In this document: piece by piece, positions 1,422-54,974 of the stretch
How the letters are laid out: each line of letters begins with the position of its first letter
Numbering within the stretch: position 1 is the stretch's first letter
Source of the DNA: a virus
IMG/VR virus record: IMGVR_UViG_3300026097_001223
Span: 118,330-182,329 of that record
DNA length: 64,000 nucleotides
Direction: 5' to 3' (one strand)
Notes under the pieces: model-generated
The model's database searches: none
The model's input: only the letters and a program-made list of their open reading frames with translations
Told to the model about the DNA's origin: nothing
Made by a program: the position numbers and the translations under genes

Positions 1422-2583
1422 ATTTTTTATACCCAATGGCAAACTACTTCGGCAATCCATTGTGCCACAATTTAATTTTTTAGATACACTTGAGTATTTG
1501 AACATTGAGTATACTGTAACCAATAGGCCAGAATCTGACAGTATTCTTTTAATTGTGCCGCTAAATGAAATACAAATTCGAGGCAACGACCACTGGGTCG
1601 AAGGCATAAAAAAATATTTCACAGATCATTCTTGGTCAGGTCCGGTGCTGATTTGGTACCCCGAGGAGCAGTTTGATTGGATATCCGGCGGACATATTTT
1701 AAATGAAATTGTAAAAAAGCTAGGTTATCCAAAACACAATGTTTTTTACGTTAGCGGAGATAAAACACCAGTTGAATCGGCTAACCTAGCTAGCGACAAT
1801 GTTTTGTATTTTCCTTACTTTGCTTATCGTATATCAAGATTAACTGCTCCAACAAGCAAACAACTCAAGTCTGCTCAAAAATCTTTTATTTGTCCAATAT
1901 GGCATGCGAGACCAGCAAGGCAATATCTACTGCATTATCTTTATAAAAATAATTTTTTAGATAAAGGATACGTAAGCTTTGGGAGAAATAAGTATTCCAC
2001 ATTGGAGGTTTTAAAACAGTATTCCAGCAAATACTTACCAGCCAGCGAGCTAGAGCAAATTGCGGAAACCATGACTCTGTTTTTGCCATTGGAAGAAAAC
2101 AATTTTACTCCGCAATATCAATTGACAATCGATGACTCGGGTATGAGTCAAGACAAGGCATGGAGTCATCAGTGGTTGTTAGATCAATTGTATCCTTATA
2201 TGAGATCCACAAAGGTTTATATTTCGCCGGAATCCGGGTGGAATTGGCAAGGGGACTTACCACACCCTACAGGATTTCTCACTGAAAAAACTTTTTTCGC
2301 TGTGTTAAGCAGAATGCCGTTTTTAATTCATGGCGAAAAACATTTAATAAAAACCATGCAAGATCTTGGCTATGAAACATTTTCGGATCATGTAGATGAA
2401 AGCTACGATGAACACGACAGTATTCATCAACGTACATTGGCAATGCTCGATTCACTTAATCAATTTTGTGATATTAGTGACATATCAGTGTTCGATGATA
2501 TTGTCGAACACAATTACAATGTGCTGTTAACCAGCGACTATAAATCTATGTTAACTACTCAATTAGAAAAAATACAGCCTTAA
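1411..2583 (+). CDS. glycosyltransferase-like (GT-B C-terminal type) phage hypothetical protein
   Basis: ATG 1411 overlaps the previous stop. C-terminal ISPES...FLTEKTFFAVLSRMPFLIHG....IKTMQDLGYETFSDHVDESYD resembles GT10-like phage proteins. Confidence 0.45.
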   Translation: MSFKFFIPNGKLLRQSIVPQFNFLDTLEYLNIEYTVTNRPESDSILLIVPLNEIQIRGNDHWVEGIKKYFTDHSWSGPVLIWYPEEQFDWISGGHILNEIVKKLGYPKHNVFYVSGDKTPVESANLASDNVLYFPYFAYRISRLTAPTSKQLKSAQKSFICPIWHARPARQYLLHYLYKNNFLDKGYVSFGRNKYSTLEVLKQYSSKYLPASELEQIAETMTLFLPLEENNFTPQYQLTIDDSGMSQDKAWSHQWLLDQLYPYMRSTKVYISPESGWNWQGDLPHPTGFLTEKTFFAVLSRMPFLIHGEKHLIKTMQDLGYETFSDHVDESYDEHDSIHQRTLAMLDSLNQFCDISDISVFDDIVEHNYNVLLTSDYKSMLTTQLEKIQP

Positions 2584-2587
2584 TTGG

Positions 2588-2615
2588 TTGACAAACAAGT
2601 TGTTTAGTGTAAACT
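2588..2615 (+). promoter_or_regulatory. sigma70-type early promoter
   Basis: TTGACA (2588-2593), 16 nt spacer, TAAACT (2610-2615), 11 nt upstream of a tRNA. Confidence 0.6.
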
Positions 2616-2626
2616 ATAAACAAGTT

Positions 2627-2703
2627 GGACCTATAGCTCAGTTGGTTAGAGCAGTGAACTCATAATTCATTGGCCCCTGGTTCGAGTCCAGGTGGGTCCA
2701 CCA
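2627..2703 (+). tRNA. tRNA with CAT anticodon, most likely tRNA-Ile2 (lysidine type)
   Basis: Acceptor GGACCTA/TGGGTCC, A73, encoded CCA. Anticodon arm GTGAA-CTCATAA-TTCAT; T-loop TTCGAGT. Overall pattern resembles E. coli ileX more than Met tRNAs. Confidence 0.9.
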
Positions 2704-2750
2704 ACTTATTCATAGCTGCAACTCGTAGTGCATAACTAAAACTAGGTACA

Positions 2751-2898
2751 GTTGAGGTCACCGTGAACATAGAGATTCATGGGTAATCGGGGAAGCAGTA
2801 AATCTGCACTGGCCTTGCAACGGTAGAGCGACACTGGGTCGCGAGTCCGAATGCCGTCCTCAATATTCTGGTACCGCAGAGCACAAGGTACTGCTCTG
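2751..2898 (+). promoter_or_regulatory. class II (AdoCbl-variant-like) cobalamin riboswitch
   Basis: P2 GTTGAGG/CCTCAAT; GGGGAA-GCAG-TAAAT-CTGC T-loop; L5 CCTTG (2813-2817) complementary to L13 CAAGG (2884-2888) of hairpin CAGAGCA/TGCTCTG; TCCGAATGCC (2846-2855) J6/3 motif. Lies directly upstream of a TonB-dependent receptor. Confidence 0.88.
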
Positions 2899-2920
2899 AC
2901 AACTTACAAAAAGGTACACA

Positions 2921-4531
2921 ATGAAAAAATCTATTCTCTCCATTGGCCTATTGGCCGTGTCTCTTTCTACGTCAGCAGAAACCACTGACATAACAATTTA
3001 TGTTACTCGAACACCAGTTGAACAAAGCATTGACACCAGGAGTTATACTAGAGCGGACTCTTTAGAACAACTGGAACAGTCTCCGGGTATTAATATTGTG
3101 CAGAGCGGACCGCGTGGACAAAATACCAGCATGTTTGCACGAGGCACAGAAAGTGACCATACACTGCTTGCTATCAACGGCATGCCTATCAAAGATCATA
3201 GCACTATATCTGGCAGTGATGACATTGGACAACACAGTTTGGCTGGTATTGATCAACTGTTGTTTATACGAGGTCCAGCCGGTAGCGCCTATGGGCCCAA
3301 TGCTGTAGGAGGTGCTGTTGACTTTATCAGTCGCGGCACAGGCGACAGTGTATCAGCATCAACTGGTACCTATGGTTATAAAAATCTGTATGGCAGTAAA
3401 CGTTTTGCAAAGGATTCCTTTGCTGGTAGCATTGCTGTTGAAACAGAACGTGCCAATGGCATTGATGTTCAGGACAACGGTGATCAGGACAGCTACACCA
3501 AGAAAAACATAAACCTGTATGGCAGTTGGATGCTGGATCAAGGCGACTTGTACTTGAACTATATCCAGTCAGACAATAGCAGTGACCTAGATGGATGGAA
3601 CGAAACCAGTAACTGGCAGTTTGATAACACACAACTTGGCTACGAAACACAAAGTGCTCGGATCGTCTACAATCAAGCAAATCATAAACGCATCTATGAT
3701 ACTTCCAGTGTGTATCTCAGCTCTGACGCTAGACTGTTGACTGAAAAAACCTGGAATCAATGGACAGTGAGCCTAGAGCACAGCAATCATGAGTACGACA
3801 GCAACAGTCGAACTGAGCAAGGGGCAGCTGTTGCTTATAATGATCAGTGGCTAAGTGCCGAATTGCGATCCGATGACACTGAGCTAGGGTCATTTGCCAG
3901 CTGGAGACTGGGCGTTTCTCACAGTGGTTTGCGAGCCAGCGTCGCCAACGGATTTAGAACCCCCAGCCTCTATGAAGTCTACGGTGATGATTTGTATGTA
4001 GAAGAAAACACAGGCCTGCAAGCAGAATATATCACTGCATATGAATTGGGATATAGAAACAGCTGGGTTGATACTGCTTTGTTTTTCAACCAAGAAACAG
4101 ACAGGATCACATACATCACTGATCCAGAGACCTATGTAGGACAGTACACAAACAACATCAAAGACACTGTTCGTACACACGGAGTTGAAACATCTCTTAC
4201 CAAAACTGTGGACGATGTTACTGTGAATTACAACTATACCTATACCTGGAGTGATGCAGACAAGCTGAGACAGCCAGCTCACATGCACAACCTTGCTCTT
4301 TTATATGGCAGTGTAACATATAGTGCACAGTATATAGGATCGCACCTGGACACTGACAGCAACACGTTTACTACAGTGAACATGAATGATGTGCTGTTAC
4401 AGAATTTGTCTTACAAGAAAAAATGGTTCACTGTGACGGTAAATAATATCACTGATCAACAGTATCAACGTCCAGATGGGTATCAACAATACGGACGCAC
4501 TATCACATTAAAGGCAGATTATGAATTCTAA
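2921..4531 (+). CDS. btuB: TonB-dependent outer-membrane receptor, BtuB-like (cobalamin)
   Basis: Signal peptide; plug motifs PGINIVQSGPRGQ.TSMFARG...DHTLLAING and RGPAGSAYGPNAVGG; FRTPSLYE; C-terminal GRTITLKADYEF ending in Phe; B12 riboswitch upstream. Confidence 0.8.
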   Translation: MKKSILSIGLLAVSLSTSAETTDITIYVTRTPVEQSIDTRSYTRADSLEQLEQSPGINIVQSGPRGQNTSMFARGTESDHTLLAINGMPIKDHSTISGSDDIGQHSLAGIDQLLFIRGPAGSAYGPNAVGGAVDFISRGTGDSVSASTGTYGYKNLYGSKRFAKDSFAGSIAVETERANGIDVQDNGDQDSYTKKNINLYGSWMLDQGDLYLNYIQSDNSSDLDGWNETSNWQFDNTQLGYETQSARIVYNQANHKRIYDTSSVYLSSDARLLTEKTWNQWTVSLEHSNHEYDSNSRTEQGAAVAYNDQWLSAELRSDDTELGSFASWRLGVSHSGLRASVANGFRTPSLYEVYGDDLYVEENTGLQAEYITAYELGYRNSWVDTALFFNQETDRITYITDPETYVGQYTNNIKDTVRTHGVETSLTKTVDDVTVNYNYTYTWSDADKLRQPAHMHNLALLYGSVTYSAQYIGSHLDTDSNTFTTVNMNDVLLQNLSYKKKWFTVTVNNITDQQYQRPDGYQQYGRTITLKADYEF

Positions 4532-5009
4532 TATACGACTTTTTTTATTTTTAGCAGGGGCACTGTTTTTATTTAGAATTGTGCCGCATCCTCCAAACTT
4601 TACACCTGTTATCGCGGCAACTGTGTTTGCCGCGTGTGCAGGACAGCGTTTTTGGGAAACCATGGCTGTGGTGCTACTGGCAATGTTTGTGAGTGATTTG
4701 TTTTTAGGATTACATGCTGGTATGCTGTGGGTATACGCCAGCCTGGTACTTGTGTTCGTGACCTCAAGGTATATGAGTTTACTTGCAAGCACACTGATTG
4801 GACCTACAGTATTTTTTGTGTCTAGTAATTTTGCAGTATGGTTGAGCGGATGGTATCCTATGACCCTTGAAGGGTTGATTACTTGTTATGTGGCTGCCAT
4901 ACCATTTTATGCGACCAGCTTGACTGCGACAGTGTTCTATGTTATATTATTTAAAATAATGCAACGTTATCTCGCAGTAGCTCAGCAGGATAGAGCATCG
5001 GACTTCTAA
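4521..5009 (+). CDS. integral membrane protein, DUF6580/ECF S-component-like, putative cobalamin transporter
   Basis: About 5-6 TM helices, PHPPNFTP motif, FFVSSNFAVW..GWYP...GLITCYVAAIPF; overlaps the btuB-like stop; last 13 codons lie inside tRNA-Arg. Confidence 0.7.
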   Translation: MNSNIRLFLFLAGALFLFRIVPHPPNFTPVIAATVFAACAGQRFWETMAVVLLAMFVSDLFLGLHAGMLWVYASLVLVFVTSRYMSLLASTLIGPTVFFVSSNFAVWLSGWYPMTLEGLITCYVAAIPFYATSLTATVFYVILFKIMQRYLAVAQQDRASDF

Positions 5010-5047
5010 TCCGAGGGTCGCAGGTTCGAATCCTGCCTGCGAGGCCA
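4971..5047 (+). tRNA. tRNA-Arg(TCT)
   Basis: Acceptor CTCGCAG/CTGCGAG, G73, CCA; anticodon arm TCGGA-CTTCTAA-TCCGA; T-arm GCAGG-TTCGAAT-CCTGC. Confidence 0.93.
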
Positions 5048-5088
5048 ATTATTCCTCTTGCCGCTAAGTACAAAAATAGGAAAAAATC

Positions 5089-5337
5089 ATGAACTTTTTT
5101 ATCATAGTACTATTAAGCGGATCGGTCAATGGAGCCGAAGAGTATTTTATTGTAACTGATCCAACATTTGAAACCATGGAACAGTGCGCAGATCATGGCG
5201 TTAACAACCAAAGTTCAGTGTTACAGGGCATGTACAATGCTACGGGTAGAACAAACTGGGACACAATAGCCTGCGTTGATAAAGAAAGATTACAATACAT
5301 GTTAAGAAATATAAAACCAGAAGGTATAGATGCATAA
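5089..5337 (+). CDS. small hypothetical protein with N-terminal hydrophobic segment
   Basis: ORF with SD-like AGGA; two Cys (TFETMEQC, IACV). Confidence 0.55.
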   Translation: MNFFIIVLLSGSVNGAEEYFIVTDPTFETMEQCADHGVNNQSSVLQGMYNATGRTNWDTIACVDKERLQYMLRNIKPEGIDA

Positions 5338-6091
5338 AACTCCAGAAAACATAAGCAATTGGATAAAAACCTACGCTGAAGATGCTGGACTCGAAACTCT
5401 AGTGGTAGGTGTAAGTGGCGGCATTGACAGTGCTGTAGTGAGCACACTGTGTGCAATGACTGGCATGAACACAGTGGTAGTGAGCATGCCTATTAGACAA
5501 AAGGACGAGCAACATGAACTCAGTGTTGATCATTGTTTGGCATTGCTTGAAAGATTTCCAAATGTTCACTGGGACACTGTGAATCTCACTGAAGCGTTTG
5601 AACAACTAGAAACACTGTTTGCAAACACGCAATACAACAGTGAATTAGCATTTGCCAACAGCCGCAGTAGACTGAGAATGATCACACTGTACCAAATTGC
5701 AGGAAGCACTCGCGGACTTGTGGTGGGCACTGGCAACAAGGTTGAAGACTTTGGCGTTGGGTTTTACACCAAGTATGGCGATGGCGGTGTTGACATTTCG
5801 CCCATTGCAGACCTAACAAAAACTCAAGTTTGGGAAATGGGAAAAACAATCGGCGTCGATCAACGCATCATTGATGCCAAGCCCACCGACGGATTATGGG
5901 ACGATGGTCGAAACGACCAGGATCAATTAGGCGGATTGACCTATTCACAATTAGAAGAAGCCATGCGCCTAGCAGATGCAGTGCGAGCAGGTGCTCCTCT
6001 AGAAGCGCATGAAAAACGACTGCTAGACAAGTACAACGAGATTCGCAAACCAAACCTGCACAAGATGAATCCAATTCCTGTATTTAAATGA
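5330..6091 (+). CDS. nadE: NH3-dependent NAD+ synthetase
   Basis: GVSGGIDSAVV PP-loop, RLRM, GTGNKVE, GFYTKYGDGGVDISPIADLTKTQV, KPTDGLW. Confidence 0.93.
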   Translation: MHKTPENISNWIKTYAEDAGLETLVVGVSGGIDSAVVSTLCAMTGMNTVVVSMPIRQKDEQHELSVDHCLALLERFPNVHWDTVNLTEAFEQLETLFANTQYNSELAFANSRSRLRMITLYQIAGSTRGLVVGTGNKVEDFGVGFYTKYGDGGVDISPIADLTKTQVWEMGKTIGVDQRIIDAKPTDGLWDDGRNDQDQLGGLTYSQLEEAMRLADAVRAGAPLEAHEKRLLDKYNEIRKPNLHKMNPIPVFK

Positions 6092-6678
6092 GCAACATAC
6101 CAAAAAATAAAAGCGTTTTAATTTTTGCATATTTTCGAAGTGGTAGCACTGCTCTCTGTGACCAAATTGCTAAACAATTAAATGTCCCTAATTTTGACGA
6201 AGCATTTCATAACTGTTACCCTGACAGAAGAGATGAATTTTTAAAATATTATCCTAAGCGTTGTGTATTCAAAATCATGGGCGATCAAACTGGAGGGAAG
6301 TATACCGCCCAAATTAACAATGCATTCCGAGACTGCTACACTATAAAATTAACAAGACGAGATTTAGCAGCACAATGTACAAGCTGGGTTATAAGTCAAA
6401 TGGGCTACATATGGCATCAATACAAAACTATGCAAATGTCAGATTATACCATTGAAATTGACCATAAATGGTTTAAGTTATATATAAATCAAATTTTGCA
6501 AAGCAATCAACTTATTGATAGTTTTACAAGATATACCAACTTTGACAAACATTTGGTATACGAAGATTTAAAACCAATTACCGGTGACTATATAAAGCGT
6601 AAAAAACCTACTAACTACACGGAAGTATATGATTCGGTTAAAATTATCTTGGAAAGAAATCATGGATATAACTTATGA
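6088..6678 (+). CDS. sulfotransferase-like protein
   Basis: N-terminal FRSGSTALC 5'-PSB-like loop; LTRRDLAAQCTSW 3'-PB-like segment; YED motif. Confidence 0.5.
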   Translation: MSNIPKNKSVLIFAYFRSGSTALCDQIAKQLNVPNFDEAFHNCYPDRRDEFLKYYPKRCVFKIMGDQTGGKYTAQINNAFRDCYTIKLTRRDLAAQCTSWVISQMGYIWHQYKTMQMSDYTIEIDHKWFKLYINQILQSNQLIDSFTRYTNFDKHLVYEDLKPITGDYIKRKKPTNYTEVYDSVKIILERNHGYNL

Positions 6679-7349
6679 ATCTTGTTGTATTCGGCGACAG
6701 TTTTGCTCATGGGATTAATAAAGAACCTTATCGCATGTTAAACGAGGAAAGTAACGCACAAAGCTTTGCGCAACAGATTGTTGACCAATCTAATGTGTTT
6801 TCTGAATGTATAAACAATGGCAAATCGGGAAATAGCAACGGTTGCATTGCCCATGATGTGTACCAATATACTCTAGAAAACAATACCAGTAACTGTTTTT
6901 TTCTTATTTGTTGGACCACTCCTTTGAGAAGACATCGGTGGAACGGGAAAACTTATGTGCCTTGTAATGCGCAAATTGCAGAATATACAAATCACAGCAG
7001 AATTTATGAAACTCTTAGAGATATTGCACTTGTAGCAAATTTCTTACAGCATAACAATATTCCATACTTGATGACTCAAGCATTTGATGACTTAAAAAAA
7101 TACACACACGACAAAACCATAATGATTCCTAACTGGATAGAATATCCAGCGCCTAATAACACACTTTTTGACATCTGCGCAAAAAGGTGGCTCAGTGATG
7201 TTGAACACAATGATTACAAAAAAAATCATGCTACGTTTGATGTAGAGACCGAATATCTTGCTGGATGTAAACACCCTAACAAACTAGGTCATCAGAAGAT
7301 TGCAGAAACATTGTTGCCTTACATTTTACAAAAGATTTCAAAAAAATAA
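6675..7349 (+). CDS. SGNH/GDSL hydrolase-like protein
   Basis: FGDSF block I, NNGKSGNSN block II, HPNKLGH block V. Confidence 0.65.
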   Translation: MNLVVFGDSFAHGINKEPYRMLNEESNAQSFAQQIVDQSNVFSECINNGKSGNSNGCIAHDVYQYTLENNTSNCFFLICWTTPLRRHRWNGKTYVPCNAQIAEYTNHSRIYETLRDIALVANFLQHNNIPYLMTQAFDDLKKYTHDKTIMIPNWIEYPAPNNTLFDICAKRWLSDVEHNDYKKNHATFDVETEYLAGCKHPNKLGHQKIAETLLPYILQKISKK

Positions 7350-7362
7350 CCATTATTTGTCA

Positions 7363-7391
7363 TTGACCATACATAAAAAAACTGTTATAGT
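7363..7391 (+). promoter_or_regulatory. sigma70-type promoter of the tRNA cluster
   Basis: TTGACC, 17 nt spacer, extended -10 TGnTATAGT. Confidence 0.7.
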
Positions 7392-7401
7392 TAATCATAA
7401 T

Positions 7402-7494
7402 CGAGAAGTGGCCGAGTGGCTGAAGGCGCTCCCCTGCTAAGGGAGTATAGGGTTTGTAGCCCTATCGAGGGTTCGAATCCCTCCTTCTCGGCCA
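7402..7494 (+). tRNA. tRNA-Ser(GCT)
   Basis: Acceptor CGAGAAG/CTTCTCG, G73, CCA; anticodon arm CTCCC-CTGCTAA-GGGAG; long variable arm. Confidence 0.95.
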
Positions 7495-7507
7495 ATTTTA
7501 CATATAT

Positions 7508-7584
7508 GCCGCTGTAGCCCAATTGGCAGAGGCGTCTGGTTTAGGTCCAGAAGGTTGGGGGTTCGACTCCCTCCAGCGGCACCA
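7508..7584 (+). tRNA. tRNA-Leu(TAG) with short variable loop
   Basis: Acceptor GCCGCTG/CAGCGGC, A73, CCA; anticodon arm TCTGG-TTTAGGT-CCAGA; 5-nt variable loop. Confidence 0.88.
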
Positions 7585-7591
7585 TACATTT

Positions 7592-7666
7592 GCGGGTGTA
7601 GCTCAGTGGTAGAGCCCTTCGTTGCCAACGAAGCTGTCGTGAGTTCGAATCTCATCACCCGCTCCA
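7592..7666 (+). tRNA. tRNA-Gly(GCC)
   Basis: Acceptor GCGGGTG/CACCCGC, U73, CCA; anticodon arm CTTCG-TTGCCAA-CGAAG. Confidence 0.95.
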
Positions 7667-7730
7667 CTTAGAGATATATTCTTTATGTTGAACACAATTT
7701 TAATAAAATTTTTTAAAGTTTACATTTATA

Positions 7731-8762
7731 ATGCAATTATCTGATATACAAAGCTTACAATGTGAAATTACATCCTACTGTAATGCAAGATGTCCGCAGT
7801 GCCCTCGTTTTGATCAATATGGTAATCTTTATCCTGGCTTGACATTGCAGCACTGGAATCACCGTGATATTTTAGCAAACATAGATCTTGATCAACTAAC
7901 CGGTCTAAACTTGGTAAGGATAGAAGGCGACAAAGGCGATCCTGTGATGCATCCAGATTGTTACGATATTGTAAAATTCTTTGTGCAAGCTCCTAGTAAG
8001 CCACTGGTAAGATTGGTTACAAATGGCAGTATTCAAACAGAAGATTGGTGGCACAATCTAGGTGAACTCAGTAATGAAAATAACTTTGATGTGATTTTTA
8101 GCATTGACGGGTTGGAAGATACAAATCATATCTACCGTATAAACACCGACTACAATAAAATCATGAGAAATGCCCGTGCATTCATAAATGCGGGCGGGCA
8201 AGCTATTTGGAAGTTTTTGGTCTTTAAGCACAACGAACATCAGCTTGATACAATTACCACTCTTGCACAAACCATGGGCTTTGCTGCAATTCAAGTTAGA
8301 AAGGCCGACGACTATAGATTTCTTGGCAACAAAAGTTTTGTTGTTTACGATAAAGGAAACCCAGTTGGAGAAATTGAACCTAGCAATATACCAAGAGAAC
8401 AACTGTTGTATTTTAAATGGTTTAACCAAGAAAAAGAATTTATTCCTAGACATGAGATAGACAAACATTGTGTTTGGATGAGTCAAGGTAAAATGAACAT
8501 TACGTTTCAAGGCTATCTCATGCCATGCTGTATGATGCATCATGTGCTCAATGACGTAGACAAAGATCTGGTAAAACAGACTGTTGAACTCATGCACAAT
8601 CCCAATGATTTACTTTTGACAAAACACACCGTCGGTACTATACTGAATAGTAAATTTTATAAATATAATCTAGAAACTCATCTCCAAAGTACTAACCTGC
8701 ATCCAATTTGCGAAACCAACTGTAGATCACAGATAAAGGACAAACTAATTGCAACTGACTAA
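7731..8762 (+). CDS. radical SAM protein with C-terminal Cys-containing (twitch/SPASM-like) domain
   Basis: CNARCPQC (CxxxCxxC), GDKGDP, TNGS, FSIDG, additional Cys in PCCMM and PICETNC. Confidence 0.85.
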   Translation: MQLSDIQSLQCEITSYCNARCPQCPRFDQYGNLYPGLTLQHWNHRDILANIDLDQLTGLNLVRIEGDKGDPVMHPDCYDIVKFFVQAPSKPLVRLVTNGSIQTEDWWHNLGELSNENNFDVIFSIDGLEDTNHIYRINTDYNKIMRNARAFINAGGQAIWKFLVFKHNEHQLDTITTLAQTMGFAAIQVRKADDYRFLGNKSFVVYDKGNPVGEIEPSNIPREQLLYFKWFNQEKEFIPRHEIDKHCVWMSQGKMNITFQGYLMPCCMMHHVLNDVDKDLVKQTVELMHNPNDLLLTKHTVGTILNSKFYKYNLETHLQSTNLHPICETNCRSQIKDKLIATD

Positions 8763-8988: not shown

Positions 8989-10053
8989 ATGAAAATATCA
9001 AAAATCCCAGGGCTGGGTAGATTTGGTGTATTCATCGACGACGTCGATTTTAAAAATATCACAGATGAAGAATGGATGGAAATCGGCAAGATCCATTTAG
9101 ACAGTCTGGTAACCATAATTCGGAACACAAAGCTGGATCCCGATCGCTACAATGAATTGATGTTAAAGTGGGGCACTCCCCGAGGCGTAGAAAACTTTAA
9201 TGTATACAAAAAATATGGTATTAACAGCGGAAAAGAGTTTTACGAAAGATGCTTTGCCGAAGATCCCACTATTGACCAAAAGCACCGAGAGTGGGGGAAA
9301 CATCTTTACAGACTAAGTCATCGTCCTGCTCTTTTACGTGTTTCTGGCAAACTGGACGAAGACGGAAATCCAATTGGCATGTTTGCTGAGGGCGAGCTGT
9401 TGTGGCACAGTAATGAGTCTGGTAACTTAACCTTTACGCCGGGTGTGAGTCTATTAGGCCAGGAAAACATGATTGGGTCATCCACTGGGTTTGTAACCAC
9501 AGTTGATTGGTATGAATCGCAGTCAGATAGTTTCCGCAGCGAGCTGGATGAAATGATTGTGCTTCACAAGTTTACTCCGGGCAAAGTGAATCCAGGCCTG
9601 AGAGAAGAACAAGATGTTCTCATGCGAGCCATGTGTGTAGCAGACGATACTGAAATTCCAATGGTAATGAACAGTCCAGGTGGATTCACTGGGTTGCACT
9701 ACAGTGTAAACACAATGGACCGTATCAAAGGAATGACCAAAGAAGAAAGCGATAAAATATTTGATATCATTGGCAAGGGTATCTTTACTGAAGAAAATAT
9801 CTACGACCATTGGTACCAGCACGACGATGACCTGTTGTTGTTTGACAATTCAATAACACTGCATCGAAGACTGGGCGATGTGAAAGGACGACTTGCATAT
9901 CGAATTCAGTACGACTATGAAACTGTGCTTGACGAGCCATGGATGCCATATCGTCAAGAGCCTTATCAAAGTGAATATATTGAACAGATCACTGAACAGG
10001 TTGAATTTATGGGACCAAGAAAGTCAAGGTTCAAACTTCCAGAGATCTCTTGA
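8989..10053 (+). CDS. TauD/TfdA-family Fe(II)/2-oxoglutarate dioxygenase-like protein
   Basis: LGRFGVFIDDVD start, WHSNES at the first iron-ligand position, DLLLFDNSITLHRR...RLAYR C-terminal motif. Confidence 0.75.
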   Translation: MKISKIPGLGRFGVFIDDVDFKNITDEEWMEIGKIHLDSLVTIIRNTKLDPDRYNELMLKWGTPRGVENFNVYKKYGINSGKEFYERCFAEDPTIDQKHREWGKHLYRLSHRPALLRVSGKLDEDGNPIGMFAEGELLWHSNESGNLTFTPGVSLLGQENMIGSSTGFVTTVDWYESQSDSFRSELDEMIVLHKFTPGKVNPGLREEQDVLMRAMCVADDTEIPMVMNSPGGFTGLHYSVNTMDRIKGMTKEESDKIFDIIGKGIFTEENIYDHWYQHDDDLLLFDNSITLHRRLGDVKGRLAYRIQYDYETVLDEPWMPYRQEPYQSEYIEQITEQVEFMGPRKSRFKLPEIS

Positions 10054-10078
10054 CACATGCTCTTTTGTCTAGTACAAT
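10050..10078 (+). promoter_or_regulatory. sigma70-type early promoter
   Basis: TTGACA, 17 nt spacer, TACAAT; followed by GAGGAG RBS and ATG 10117. Confidence 0.8.
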
Positions 10079-10116
10079 AGTAGAACATAAAAGAGTCTAT
10101 CACCGAGGAGAACATT

Positions 10117-10416
10117 ATGACTGGTTGGATTAACTTGGGCACGTTTGCCTATGGGCTATTGGATGGCACGAAAAACGCACTGAAAACTGCACCCATGGAA
10201 TACAAGTATCTGGTCAGCAATCTGCTGGCGGCTATGTGGTGTATTGGATTTGGTATCTACACAGCAGAGTTGTTGTTCATTGGCTACAACATCATCGGGC
10301 ACATCGCTCTTATCACCTGTGTGTTCTTCACATTCTTTGTGTTCACCGCAGAACGCAAAACGTCAGAGCCTGCACCGCCTAATAAGGTTCAATGGGATTT
10401 AGAGCGAGAGGGATGA
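10117..10416 (+). CDS. hypothetical membrane protein
   Basis: Strong RBS; two TM segments. Confidence 0.7.
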   Translation: MTGWINLGTFAYGLLDGTKNALKTAPMEYKYLVSNLLAAMWCIGFGIYTAELLFIGYNIIGHIALITCVFFTFFVFTAERKTSEPAPPNKVQWDLEREG

Positions 10417-10583
10417 GCAAGTTTCGCAACCTACTTGCAGACCTATTCAAAACAGATGAAGAAAAACTGCGAGATCGTAAACGCCGTGTCCAACATCCAC
10501 ATATAGTTGACAGCAAACGTCACTGGGATTGGGACACGGGATACTCAGACATAGAGGACACCCACAATGACAAAAGAAAGTGA
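10413..10583 (+). CDS. hypothetical protein
   Basis: ATGA stop/start overlap with the upstream gene. Confidence 0.5.
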   Translation: MSKFRNLLADLFKTDEEKLRDRKRRVQHPHIVDSKRHWDWDTGYSDIEDTHNDKRK

Positions 10584-11815: not shown

Positions 11816-11845
11816 TTGACAACATAGTCTACGTTAATATATAGT
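11816..11845 (+). promoter_or_regulatory. sigma70-type promoter
   Basis: TTGACA, 18 nt spacer, TATAGT, upstream of peroxiredoxin (AAGGAG RBS). Confidence 0.5.
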
Positions 11846-11875: not shown

Positions 11876-12448
11876 ATGAAAGAAGGACAAAAGGTGCCAG
11901 AGGTAACCTTTAAGTATCGTGTTCGCACAGACGGCAAACCCATCACATATGTTGATGAGACCAATGGTGGCGACAATCCATTTGAGTTCAAAGACATTTC
12001 AACAGCAGACATCTTCGGCGGAAAAACAGTTGTAGTATTTTCGCTGCCAGGGGCATACACACCAACCTGTAGTACATATCAAGTGCCAGGATTTGAAGAA
12101 AAATATGCTGATTTTGTAAATCACGGTGTAGATGATATCTACGTATTAAGTGTAAATGACACATTTGTTATGCGTCGTTGGATGATTGATCAGGGTGTGA
12201 AAAACATCAAGTTCATTCCAGATGGCAATGGTGAATTTACAGAAGGCATGGGCATGCTTAATTGCATGACAGCAGTGGGCTTTGGCAACCGCAGTCGTCG
12301 GTATGCCATGATTGTCAAGGATGGCACCATAGAGAAGATGTTTGTTGAACCAGATTCAACAGCAGACAATCCCGATCCATATGGCAAAAGTTCGCCCGAG
12401 TCGGTATTAGAATATCTTTTCGAAGAAACAATAGCTGAGTTAACATAA
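11876..12448 (+). CDS. peroxiredoxin (Prx5 type)
   Basis: FSLPGAYTPTCS peroxidatic motif, SVNDTFVM, FIPDGNGEFT, RSRRYAMIV.DG. Confidence 0.93.
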   Translation: MKEGQKVPEVTFKYRVRTDGKPITYVDETNGGDNPFEFKDISTADIFGGKTVVVFSLPGAYTPTCSTYQVPGFEEKYADFVNHGVDDIYVLSVNDTFVMRRWMIDQGVKNIKFIPDGNGEFTEGMGMLNCMTAVGFGNRSRRYAMIVKDGTIEKMFVEPDSTADNPDPYGKSSPESVLEYLFEETIAELT

Positions 12449-12458
12449 GGAGAAAACT

Positions 12459-12893
12459 ATGAGCGTTAAAGGCACTAAAACAGAACAGGCATTGAAAGAT
12501 GCTTTTGCAGGCGAATCAAAAGCAAACCGTCGCTATTTGTATTTTGCAAACATGGCAGACATTGAAGGTGCTCCAGAAGTAGCCAATGTATTCCGTAATA
12601 CAGCAGAAGGCGAGACTGGTCACGCACACGGCCACATGGAGTATCTAATCACAGGCGGTGCAGGTGATCCAGAAACAGATCTTCCAGCAGGCAATGTGGT
12701 AGAAGCATTAGAAAGTGCTATTGCAGGTGAAACGCATGAGTACACCGACATGTACCCAGGCATGGCAAAGACTGCACGTGACGAAGGCTTTGATGAGATT
12801 GCTGATTGGTTTGAAACACTGGCCAAAGCAGAGCGTTCACATGCTAACAAGTTCAAGAAGACACTTGATGCATACAACGAAGAAAACGCATAA
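12459..12893 (+). CDS. rubrerythrin/erythrin di-iron protein lacking a rubredoxin domain
   Basis: [39 protein letters not shown]. Confidence 0.92.
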
Positions 12894-52005: not shown

Positions 52006-52750
52006 AAATTCCGACGAACAAGAAATTAAACGTGCATATCGAAAACTGGCCATGAAGCATCATCCAGATCGCGGCGGCAACCCTGAAGAGTTTGCTAAAG
52101 TGCAGGAGGCGTACGACATGTTGACTAATACACAAGCTCGCGGGCACTTTGATAGTCCTCAGCCCGACTTTGATTTCAGTGGCGGCGGATTCGAAGATAT
52201 TTTCTCTCATGTGTTTGGCACAGACGGTTCATTTGGGTTTGGGCCCAGGCAACAAAGACAGCAGCGAATGCAACGTATTCAAGTGCCGATTGATTTTAAA
52301 ACCAGTCTAACCGGCGGTGTTCAGCATATTGCACTTGCCGGATTCCGGGACCCGATTGAAATTCAAGTGCCCAGTGGAGTTGACAACGGAGATCAAATAC
52401 GCTATCCTAGACTATTACAAGGTGAAGATCTTGTGGTACTGTTTAGAGTTCATCCTCATCCGGAATATCATCGTGATAGACTGGATCTACACACGGAAAT
52501 ATCTGTAGACGTGTTTGATCTCATTCTAGGGCACACTGTGATGTTTACTTCGCTGTGTGGTAAAACCATAAAACTTAATATCAAAGCTGGCACTCAACCG
52601 GAAACAGTTTTGAGAATACCGCACATGGGTGTAGAAAAGGGGCATGTTAAAGGCAACCTATACATCAAAGTAAGAGCAAGAATACCAGACAATGTCGACG
52701 ACAACGTATTAAATACTATCAAAGCCAACAGAGAAAAAAATGAGCAATAA
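51974..52750 (+). CDS. dnaJ: DnaJ-class co-chaperone without Zn finger
   Basis: DYYQVLG, AYRKLAMKHHPD, G/F-rich linker, C-terminal domain with LRIP..G. Confidence 0.9.
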   Translation: MDYYQVLGISRNSDEQEIKRAYRKLAMKHHPDRGGNPEEFAKVQEAYDMLTNTQARGHFDSPQPDFDFSGGGFEDIFSHVFGTDGSFGFGPRQQRQQRMQRIQVPIDFKTSLTGGVQHIALAGFRDPIEIQVPSGVDNGDQIRYPRLLQGEDLVVLFRVHPHPEYHRDRLDLHTEISVDVFDLILGHTVMFTSLCGKTIKLNIKAGTQPETVLRIPHMGVEKGHVKGNLYIKVRARIPDNVDDNVLNTIKANREKNEQ

Positions 52751-54974
52751 AAATCCCGAAATTGAAGGCATCCTTGCCCATGCAACTGAAATTGCAACCA
52801 AGGCAAATCACGAGTATGTTACCTGTGAACATTTGCTATCTGCACTGGTTCAGCATCCTCCATTTGAAAAGTGTTTACAGGAGTTCGGCGCAGACACTGA
52901 ACAGCTGATTGCAGAACTGGACGCTTACTTGGAAAGTCTCAACAGCATTATCAGCACTGCCGGCGGCCGTCCTAGGAAAACAGCGGCGCTGGAGCGAGTG
53001 TTCAATAGAGCGATGACTCAAGTGCTGTTTACTGGCAGGGACAATGTGAGCACTGTTGACCTTTATCTTGCTATCATGGCCGAGACCAACAGCTTTGCTC
53101 AATACTTCTTGCTCAAGCAAAACATCACTAGAGAACAATTTGCTGACCACTGGCACGAAACCTATGACTCCGGTGACTACAGCAAAGTTTCTGGCGCACA
53201 AGCAAACAAAGTATTGTCAGAGTATTGTACCGATGTTACAGCACGAGCCGAGACCGGTGAGCTTGAACCAATGATTGGTCGAGAAAAAGAAGTTGACGAA
53301 ATTGTAACGGTGTTGGCCAAAAAATGGAAGGCTAATGTAATGCTGATCGGCGACCCAGGAGTAGGAAAAACAGCCATTGTGGAAGGGCTGGCACAATCCA
53401 TTGCAGATAAGTCTGTTCCAGAGTACCTGCAGACTGCAAGAATTTGGAGTCTCGAAGTTGGCAACTTGGTCGCGGGCAGTAAGTATCGCGGAGACTTTGA
53501 AGAAAAACTTAAAAATGTGCTTGAAGCACTGGAAAGTATTCCCAACAGCATCTTGTTTATTGACGAAGCACACACCATCAAAGGTGCAGGCAGTGTAAGC
53601 AAAGGCGAAGGTCTTGACTTTGCAAACATGTTGAAACCACATATCACAACTGGTAAAATCAAGGTTATTGCCAGCACTACCTGGGAAGAATACTACGAAA
53701 GCTTCGAAAAAGATCGTGCATTGATGCGCAGATTCTACAATGTTAATGTAGACGAGCCCGACAACGACACCACGGTAAAGATCATGCTTGGATTGAAAAA
53801 ACGCCTGGAAAGCTATCACGGAGTTGAAATTGACCAAGCCGCTGTAGAAGAAACTGTGCAACTAACTGCTCGATATATCCCGGACAGAAAAAATCCAGAC
53901 AAGAGTATAGATCTACTAGACACAACCTGTGCGTATGTACGCAGTCACAGCGATGTGGGCAAAGAGATTACTAAAAATCTTGTGATGAATAGACTGAGTC
54001 ATATCACTGGCATTCCAGAAAACAAGTTGAAAAGTAACGCTAGTGCTAAGATACAGAATCTAGAAGGTGCAATCAAAGAAAAACTCTACGGACAAGACAG
54101 CGTAGTTGACAGTGTGCTGGACAGAATTTACATGAGCTTCGGCGGACTAGGCAGTGCCAATCGGCCACAAACCAGTATGTTATTCCTAGGCCCAACTGGC
54201 ACAGGTAAAACTGAGCTAGCTCGTCAACTAAGCAAGAACCTCGACATGCATCTACTGCGCTATGATATGAGTGAGTATCAAGAGCGACACAGTGTCAGCA
54301 GTTTACTAGGAGCGCCTCCGGGTTATGTGGGGTTCGGCGAAGCCAGTCAAGGCGGCGGCAGATTGATCAGCGATATCAGCAAGCATCCGTTTAGTGTTCT
54401 GTTGTTCGACGAAGTGGAAAAGGCACACCCAGATGTGTACAATATTTTTCTACAGATGCTAGACGAAGGCACTATCACTGGCACAAATGGCAAAACAGTA
54501 AATGTTAAAAACTGTATTGTAATAATGACATCAAATCTGGGTGCCAGGGCCAATGAACAGAACGCAATTGGGTTTGGATCACTGGAAAACACCGGCAAAG
54601 AAGATCAAGAACTAAAGGACTTTTTCCGTCCTGAATTGAGAAACAGAATCGATCTTGTGTGCAAGTTTGATAAACTGGACAATCTCAGTGTGCGCAAAGT
54701 TGTGTTAAAATTCTTGCATGAACTAGAAGCACGATTAAAAGACAAAAACATCACTGTGGAATTCACAGAAGCATTGATCGGGCACGTTGCTGAAAATGGT
54801 TATGACAGTGCCATGGGTGCTAGACCATTGGCTAGATATATCGATGAACATGTAAAAGTTCCGCTGAGCAAGCAGATCTTGTTCCAGGAACTGCAGGATA
54901 CACACATCAAGCTGGATATCAGCAACGGCGAAGTGGTCATATCTCAACACGAAAAGTCATTAAGCAATGCATAA
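52740..54974 (+). CDS. clpA: ClpA-type AAA+ unfoldase
   Basis: HEYVTCEHLL, GDPGVGKT/IDEAH, GPTGTGKT/DMSEY/GAPPGYVG/FDEVEK, IGF ClpP-docking loop, no ClpB middle domain. Confidence 0.88.
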   Translation: MSNKNPEIEGILAHATEIATKANHEYVTCEHLLSALVQHPPFEKCLQEFGADTEQLIAELDAYLESLNSIISTAGGRPRKTAALERVFNRAMTQVLFTGRDNVSTVDLYLAIMAETNSFAQYFLLKQNITREQFADHWHETYDSGDYSKVSGAQANKVLSEYCTDVTARAETGELEPMIGREKEVDEIVTVLAKKWKANVMLIGDPGVGKTAIVEGLAQSIADKSVPEYLQTARIWSLEVGNLVAGSKYRGDFEEKLKNVLEALESIPNSILFIDEAHTIKGAGSVSKGEGLDFANMLKPHITTGKIKVIASTTWEEYYESFEKDRALMRRFYNVNVDEPDNDTTVKIMLGLKKRLESYHGVEIDQAAVEETVQLTARYIPDRKNPDKSIDLLDTTCAYVRSHSDVGKEITKNLVMNRLSHITGIPENKLKSNASAKIQNLEGAIKEKLYGQDSVVDSVLDRIYMSFGGLGSANRPQTSMLFLGPTGTGKTELARQLSKNLDMHLLRYDMSEYQERHSVSSLLGAPPGYVGFGEASQGGGRLISDISKHPFSVLLFDEVEKAHPDVYNIFLQMLDEGTITGTNGKTVNVKNCIVIMTSNLGARANEQNAIGFGSLENTGKEDQELKDFFRPELRNRIDLVCKFDKLDNLSVRKVVLKFLHELEARLKDKNITVEFTEALIGHVAENGYDSAMGARPLARYIDEHVKVPLSKQILFQELQDTHIKLDISNGEVVISQHEKSLSNA

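Follow-up and report, generated by a model that had tools for sequence, protein, structure and literature searches.

A membrane-protein gene of an uncultured marine jumbo phage ends in the anticodon loop of a downstream tRNA-Arg

Our question was what to make of a phage gene that has no stop codon before the tRNA gene that follows it and takes its stop from that tRNA. Such an arrangement could be a device for controlling the gene, a result of close packing or an error in the data. The gene lies in the window, by which we mean the whole stretch of 64,000 nucleotides that was analysed. The window is part of an IMG/VR virus record of 182,329 bases, estimated to be 52% complete, from an uncultured giant marine phage, and related records of 316-337 kb identify its source as a jumbo phage. 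The coordinates of the features are collected in Table 1.

Table 1. Features of the window around the overlap, the rescue-related genes of the window, and genes of related phages that end inside a tRNA (positions are those of the window unless a contig is named).
Feature	Position	Strand	Evidence or remark
Sigma70-like promoter TTGACA-16-TAAACT	2588..2615	+	Ends 12 nt before tRNA-Met; position kept in L002 and L003 despite diverged flanks
tRNA with CAT anticodon (Met, or Ile2 if lysidinylated)	2627..2703	+	ARAGORN, Rfam
Near-threshold cobalamin riboswitch aptamer, receptor 5' UTR	2738..2876	+	RF00174, 29.2 bits (gathering 31.5), E 6.6e-6, full model
BtuB-like TonB-dependent receptor, 536 aa	2921..4531	+	Pfam Plug 1.3e-12; overlaps DUF6580 start by 11 nt
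DUF6580 / ECF-S-like inner-membrane protein gene, 162 aa	4521..5009	+	Residues 1-150 before the tRNA; 151-162 and stop are tRNA sequence
Sigma70-like promoter TTGACT-17-TATATT with TG	4920..4948	+	Inside the 3' end of the DUF6580 ORF, 22 nt upstream of tRNA-Arg
tRNA-Arg(UCU)	4971..5047	+	ARAGORN tRNA-Arg(tct); Rfam tRNA 72.2 bits (gathering 29); encoded CCA
TAA stop of the DUF6580 ORF	5007..5009	+	Canonical tRNA positions U36-A37-A38
82-aa gene	5089..5337	+	Directly after tRNA-Arg, no terminator between
NadE	5330..6091		Follows the 82-aa gene
Two-piece (permuted) tmRNA, E. coli-like tag ANDENFALAA	11214..11612	+	ARAGORN, Rfam
ClpA-like double-AAA+ unfoldase	52740..54974	+	TIGR02639 790 bits, under equivalog cut-off 993
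AdoMet decarboxylase	L052		TAG at nt 8-10 of tRNA-Val
SufBD-like protein	L052		TAG at nt 8-10 of tRNA-Asp
Endonuclease (phrog_15137)	L049 12614-13228		TAG at nt 8-10 of tRNA-Met
Endonuclease (phrog_15137)	L024 14292-15014		TAA at nt 36-38 of tRNA-Met

The DUF6580 frame is the only long one at the 5' half of tRNA-Arg. Its codon 151 starts at base 1 of the tRNA, and from there 12 codons of tRNA sequence, covering the acceptor 5' strand, the D arm and the anticodon 5' strand, are read before the stop, giving a product that ends in MQRY followed by LAVAQQDRASDF. The TAA is made of the third anticodon base and the two bases 3' of it (loop C-T-TCT-A-A), 37-39 nt into the tRNA, and the ORF has no in-frame stop upstream of the tRNA. 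A previous sequence-only reading of this DNA had described the same geometry and had claimed that no earlier in-frame stop exists; the coordinates, the translation and the ARAGORN and Rfam tRNA calls bear out the first statement and the frame itself bears out the second. The position of the TAA is not suited to a chance test, because any frame entering tRNA-Arg(UCU) meets the TAA of U36-A37-A38 in one case out of three. The conserved absence of any stop ahead of the tRNA is what calls for an explanation.

Judged from its domain match and its codon differences, the DUF6580 ORF is a real gene. Residues 5-145 match Pfam DUF6580 (PF20221) at 2.9e-32 and 112.6 bits, against a gathering threshold of 27, and the match covers positions 7-149 of the 162 in the model, leaving the last 13 unmatched where the tRNA-derived tail sits. 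Comparison with the 82% identical homologue on contig L002 finds 85 codons that differ, 56 synonymously and 29 non-synonymously, which argues for purifying selection on the ORF. An AlphaFold (AF2) model has a mean pLDDT of 84.8; the tail has values of 51-68, and the greater part of the core (residues 31-150) reaches 84-96. Taken with the end of the Pfam match at residue 145, the low pLDDT of the tail places the whole conserved domain upstream of the tRNA, and the product truncated after residue 150 that is predicted from RNase P cleavage would keep the Pfam domain. The best Foldseek neighbours of the model are ECF S-components, with TM scores of 0.55-0.59 and non-significant E-values of 0.3 or worse; a sequence search of the PDB with the protein gave no match, and a literature search on DUF6580 found nothing.

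The tRNA appears equally sound. Its precursor is canonical (U at -1, G73 and an encoded CCA) and its consensus fold has 21 pairs. The copies in the window and in the L002 lineage are identical at 71 of 77 bases, and all six differences belong to three compensatory swaps in the anticodon stem, each of them double and pair-preserving, so that no change is left without its partner. Three of the five anticodon-stem pairs have thus been swapped on both sides between the lineages, and by this covariation tRNA-Arg(UCU) is to be taken as functional. It also has work to do, since AGA is the commonest arginine codon of the phage (31% of Arg codons). The same swaps turn the end of the protein from ASDF into ATAF (SD to TA). 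As the tail changes along with the compensatory swaps, selection acts on the tRNA, and the 12 residues of the tail are carried along as a passenger. The tail comes after the last transmembrane helix and is not conserved with other DUF6580 proteins; the more distant ones (at most 46% identity) have stops of their own, and beyond the last helix they carry 10-45 residues of unrelated sequence. The nearest other DUF6580 genes, at 46% identity (L121 3987-6315 and L122 5001-5501), are on phage-like contigs with DnaB and Pol III alpha genes, and on one of these contigs the order is reversed, with DUF6580 followed by the receptor. Genes for B12-type uptake may be a recurrent auxiliary module of marine phages.

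The same arrangement is found in three lineages and at least eight assemblies, made independently from ENA, Logan and JGI. At least ten contigs, L003-L007 among them, carry a 98% identical protein (P0001), and the 82% identical protein (P0002) is present on L002, from ENA, and on L088, a second assembly of the L002 lineage from JGI. Every copy of the two has 162 aa and ends within the same tRNA-Arg. The sequence-only reading had proposed asking whether homologues in related phages end before or inside a tRNA, and had named a stop before 4971 in related genomes as the mark of an assembly error; the closest related phages end inside the same tRNA-Arg, and the agreement of at least eight independent assemblies speaks against such an error. 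The overlap of the DUF6580 gene with tRNA-Arg is confirmed as real and conserved. Codons 146-150 (4956-4970, the final 15-17 nt ahead of tRNA-Arg) do not vary between the lineages, although 52% of the codons in the rest of the ORF do. This invariance may hint at a constraint on the junction, which could come from the pre-tRNA leader or initial transcribed region, from the promoter, or from selection on the arrangement itself. At codon 148 or 150 a single substitution would be enough to make an upstream stop, and none has arisen in the known lineages. We weighed whether this is informative and dropped it, since there are only three single-base routes to such a stop and, by a rough estimate, the chance that none would be taken under neutrality is about 60%.

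IMG/VR searches with the DUF6580 protein, the 5' half of tRNA-Arg, the 82-aa neighbour and the receptor returned no further relative and no empty-site genome, and one metagenome search for relatives returned only L088. A megablast of 2600-7700 against the phage collection gave matches only to generic tRNA-Met and tRNA-Ser segments, and among 80 NadE-anchored loci none has the cassette or a tRNA-Arg upstream of NadE. It had been suggested from the sequence that the overlap is a by-product of the cassette inserting into a tRNA array. That the overlap is a by-product of juxtaposition is the better-supported reading; the insertion itself is plausible, and the searches for an empty-site relative gave it no backing.

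Upstream of the overlap, the promoter at 2588..2615 probably starts a unit made of tRNA-Met, riboswitch, btuB-like gene and DUF6580. The riboswitch match has a counterpart at the same place in L002 (AdoCbl-II, 24.9 bits). A GGTACC at 2870-2875, after the aptamer, could pair with AAGGTAC at 2912-2918, which overlaps the ribosome-binding site, and this potential pairing suggests translational control. The best NCBIfam match of the receptor is the TonB-B12 receptor TIGR01779, at 7.9e-36 and far under the equivalog cut-off, and the 11-nt overlap couples the DUF6580 gene translationally to it. The phage-borne B12-type uptake cassette, with its compact receptor, spans 2738-5009 of the window and 519-2748 of L002.

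Downstream, the second promoter probably supplies tRNA-Arg independently of the operon; L002 has TTGACA-17-TATTGT at the same place. No terminator-like site was found from 4878 to 5121, that is, between the ORF and tRNA-Arg or between tRNA-Arg and the next gene. Within 2400-7800, the three plus-strand sigma70-like sites with the best scores each end close to a tRNA: 12 nt before tRNA-CAT, 23 nt before tRNA-Arg and 11 nt before tRNA-Ser. With 67 such sites (10/12) in 182 kb, or 0.37 per kb, the joint chance of these three placements at tRNA units is about 3e-6, and the positions are kept in L002 and L003 though the flanks have diverged. In each case a tRNA or tRNA cluster has a strong sigma70-like promoter before it (2588-2615, 4920-4948, 7363-7391) and protein genes after it without a terminator. 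Further promoter-like sites of 11/12 are found at 8616-8644, 10050-10078 and 11816-11845. The region reads as a series of units, each of promoter, tRNA or tRNAs and mRNA, and the overlap would then be the junction of two of them.

We hold with moderate confidence that the overlap is a tolerated compaction, or juxtaposition, at the junction of two tRNA-led transcription units, and not a device. RNase P cuts at position +1 of a tRNA. We read the DUF6580 gene as closing a B12-type uptake operon (promoter, tRNA-CAT, cobalamin riboswitch, btuB-like receptor, DUF6580), which abuts the next unit (promoter, tRNA-Arg, 82-aa gene, NadE onward) with no spacer and no terminator. The tRNA-Arg would be made mainly from its own promoter inside the ORF. 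On transcripts that read through from the operon, the first ribosomes would finish at the UAA, and a ribosome terminating in the anticodon loop would cover the tRNA and delay its folding. Once the tRNA folds, RNase P would cut at 4970/4971 and leave an mRNA ending in CGU UAU-3' without a stop. This upstream mRNA would be degraded 3' to 5', as secG mRNA is after RNase P parts it from leuU, and ribosomes caught on it would be rescued by trans-translation. The net effect would be at most a shorter productive life of the transporter mRNA.

Other junctions in related phages support the view that the overlap came from packing. We surveyed 74 distinct tRNAs in related jumbo-phage loci. In 32 cases an ORF of 100 aa or more on the same strand ends inside the tRNA or at most 300 nt upstream of it. 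The gaps from gene to tRNA at these 32 junctions are -39 (window), -39 (L002), -38, -10, -10, -10, +7, +10, +12, +17 and upward, so that the overlap of the window is the far end of a continuum of compaction in the jumbo-phage group. The four additional genes that end in same-strand tRNAs (Table 1) are genuine; the two on L052, AdoMet decarboxylase and SufBD-like, have the coordinates 10084-10482 and 12098-12673. In these cases the conserved tRNA nucleotides U8-A9-G10 and U36-A37-A38 serve as ready-made stops. No more real overlaps came from the 36 tRNAs of five large related records, where only short spurious frames within tRNA arrays turned up. The start of a 397-aa product of the gene caller (L002 4851-6044; L088 3128-4321) falls within tRNA-Leu, and its frame continues across tRNA-Gly. 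Here the gene has been over-extended at its 5' end, an artefact that is the opposite of a genuine 3' overlap and arises because the tRNAs have no stops in that frame.

If the arrangement has nevertheless been selected, it could act as a limiter of output with no part for tmRNA, where RNase P cleavage triggers fast decay of the operon mRNA and so caps two membrane proteins that are toxic if over-made. The secG mRNA is destabilised in this way after RNase P separates it from leuU (PMC2241853), the junction is conserved, and the operon already has a riboswitch, implying that dosage matters. However, a normal stop and a short spacer, as in secG-leuU and most of the surveyed junctions, give the same decay and the missing stop adds nothing, which makes this explanation unlikely.

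The sequence-only reading had gone further and linked the locus to the tmRNA and ClpA of the phage itself, which amounts to a programmed non-stop mRNA of the ArfA kind. RNase P would remove the stop, and the transporter would be ssrA-tagged and destroyed unless trans-translation is saturated or altered, tying its level to the phage tmRNA and ClpA. Part of this is well founded, in that a cut at 4970/4971 would leave a stop-less mRNA by established enzymology on a canonical pre-tRNA, and the geometry makes such an mRNA unavoidable after cleavage. The arrangement and the junction sequence are conserved, the phage has a tmRNA and a ClpA-like gene, ArfA proves that circuits of this kind exist (PMC3989581), and the ECF-S-like fold of the model weakly suggests a cytoplasmic C-terminus that Clp or FtsH could reach. 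Its claim that tRNA processing and full-length synthesis are mutually exclusive per transcript is too strong, since the internal promoter at 4920-4948 can decouple tRNA supply from the operon and translation can precede processing. The link to tmRNA and ClpA itself is not supported. Permuted tmRNAs are present in four of five large related phage records (G002-G006) whose NadE-anchored loci lack the cassette, and also in the record containing L024. By this distribution the permuted tmRNA is a feature of the phage group and not tied to the cassette, and the overlap and the rescue system do not co-occur beyond that background. Neither SmpB nor ClpP was detected in this half-complete record, and the tail follows the evolution of the tRNA as a passenger. 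Additionally, unrelated genes that overlap tRNAs by 10 nt speak for packing and not for design, the clade is narrow, comprising no more than two diverged lineages, and no rationale connects B12 uptake with ribosome-rescue capacity. Given these points we think a programmed non-stop mRNA decidedly improbable. The same low standing goes to a broader form of it, in which the stops lent by tRNAs (U8-A9-G10 and U36-A37-A38) would be a selected design in the jumbo-phage group, the output of the upstream gene would be set by RNase P and trans-translation capacity, and the permuted tmRNA and ClpA-like protein would be the disposal arm, generalising an ArfA-like circuit to tRNA-punctuated phage operons.

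A third proposal reverses the direction of control and has translation gate the maturation of the tRNA: ribosomes on nt 1-39 would keep tRNA-Arg unfolded, its release would depend on translation of the transporter, and an AGA codon in the tail would be read by the same tRNA. The ORF does cover the acceptor 5' strand, the D arm and the anticodon 5' strand, and codon 158 is AGA. This codon is expected by chance, though, since GATAGAGC is generic D-arm sequence; the internal promoter would yield an untranslated pre-tRNA, and the feedback would have the wrong sign for homeostasis. We regard gating as very improbable.

Still less can be said for completion of the stop by polyadenylation of the mRNA 3' end after excision of the tRNA, as in mitochondria. 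Like a punctuated mitochondrial transcript, the operon mRNA has a tRNA on either side, and a wobble pair of U(-1) with G73 could move part of the cleavage one base upstream and leave an end in UA, but nothing points to such a shift. The sequence rejects this reading almost completely, as the last codon before the tRNA is TAT and addition of A gives UAU AAA, which is no stop. An artefact (sequencing or assembly error, pseudo-tRNA or dead gene) is refuted by the at least eight independent assemblies, the covariation of the tRNA and the purifying selection on the ORF, and nothing was found in its favour. Separately, an integrase att site in tRNA-Arg was considered and rejected: the 64 kb hold no second copy of the 5' half at up to three mismatches and no relevant direct repeat.

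Compaction, the reading that we prefer, still has consequences for how such phages are annotated and understood. Annotation pipelines normally forbid overlaps of CDS and tRNA, and thus cases like this one are lost by trimming or called wrongly. Even under this ordinary reading, gene-calling software for phages should let a stop fall inside a tRNA. With a real and conserved overlap here and similar ones in related giant phages, some phage mRNAs must be left without a stop whenever the downstream tRNA matures. The locus is a conserved natural test case in which RNase P processing, translation and ribosome rescue can be set against each other on one RNA, and it bears on why many phages of the group carry their own tmRNA. 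It also maps a phage region that seems to be organised as units of promoter, tRNA and mRNA.

In our literature search we met no account of a stop codon lying inside a tRNA in a phage or a bacterium, and the closest known systems each share part of the arrangement. In the secG-leuU transcript of E. coli one RNase P cut parts the mRNA of a membrane protein from the tRNA, after which the secG mRNA has a half-life of less than 30 s (PMC2241853). [quoted passage not shown] The difference is that secG keeps its stop, with a 14-nt spacer after it, whereas the phage 'spacer' is -39 nt, the stop is in the anticodon loop and the cleaved mRNA would be stop-less. For arfA, RNase III cuts at a hairpin upstream of the stop to give a non-stop mRNA, and the product is tmRNA-tagged and degraded unless trans-translation is limiting (PMC3989581). 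A site-specific RNase cut upstream of the stop that yields a non-stop mRNA is common to both, again as predicted for the phage. In arfA, however, the truncated product is the active form and the regulatory logic has been demonstrated, whereas in the phage locus RNase P would act at a bona fide tRNA and the gene is a transporter gene. In mitochondria, as Ojala et al. reportedly described in 1981, flanking tRNAs punctuate the transcript and delimit the mRNAs, and messages end in U or UA that is completed by polyadenylation. Excision of tRNAs defines mRNA ends without a full stop there, as it is predicted to do in the phage, but the phage mRNA would end in UAU, which addition of A could not complete. 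Protein genes packed against or into tRNA genes are also known from homing endonucleases, such as T4 segB within a tRNA cluster (PMC2330249). The endonucleases of L024 and L049, which end at nt 36-38 and nt 8-10 of tRNA-Met, are alike in this, while the gene in the window is a metabolic or transport gene and not a selfish nuclease. The arrangement is a variation on known mRNA-tRNA co-transcripts.
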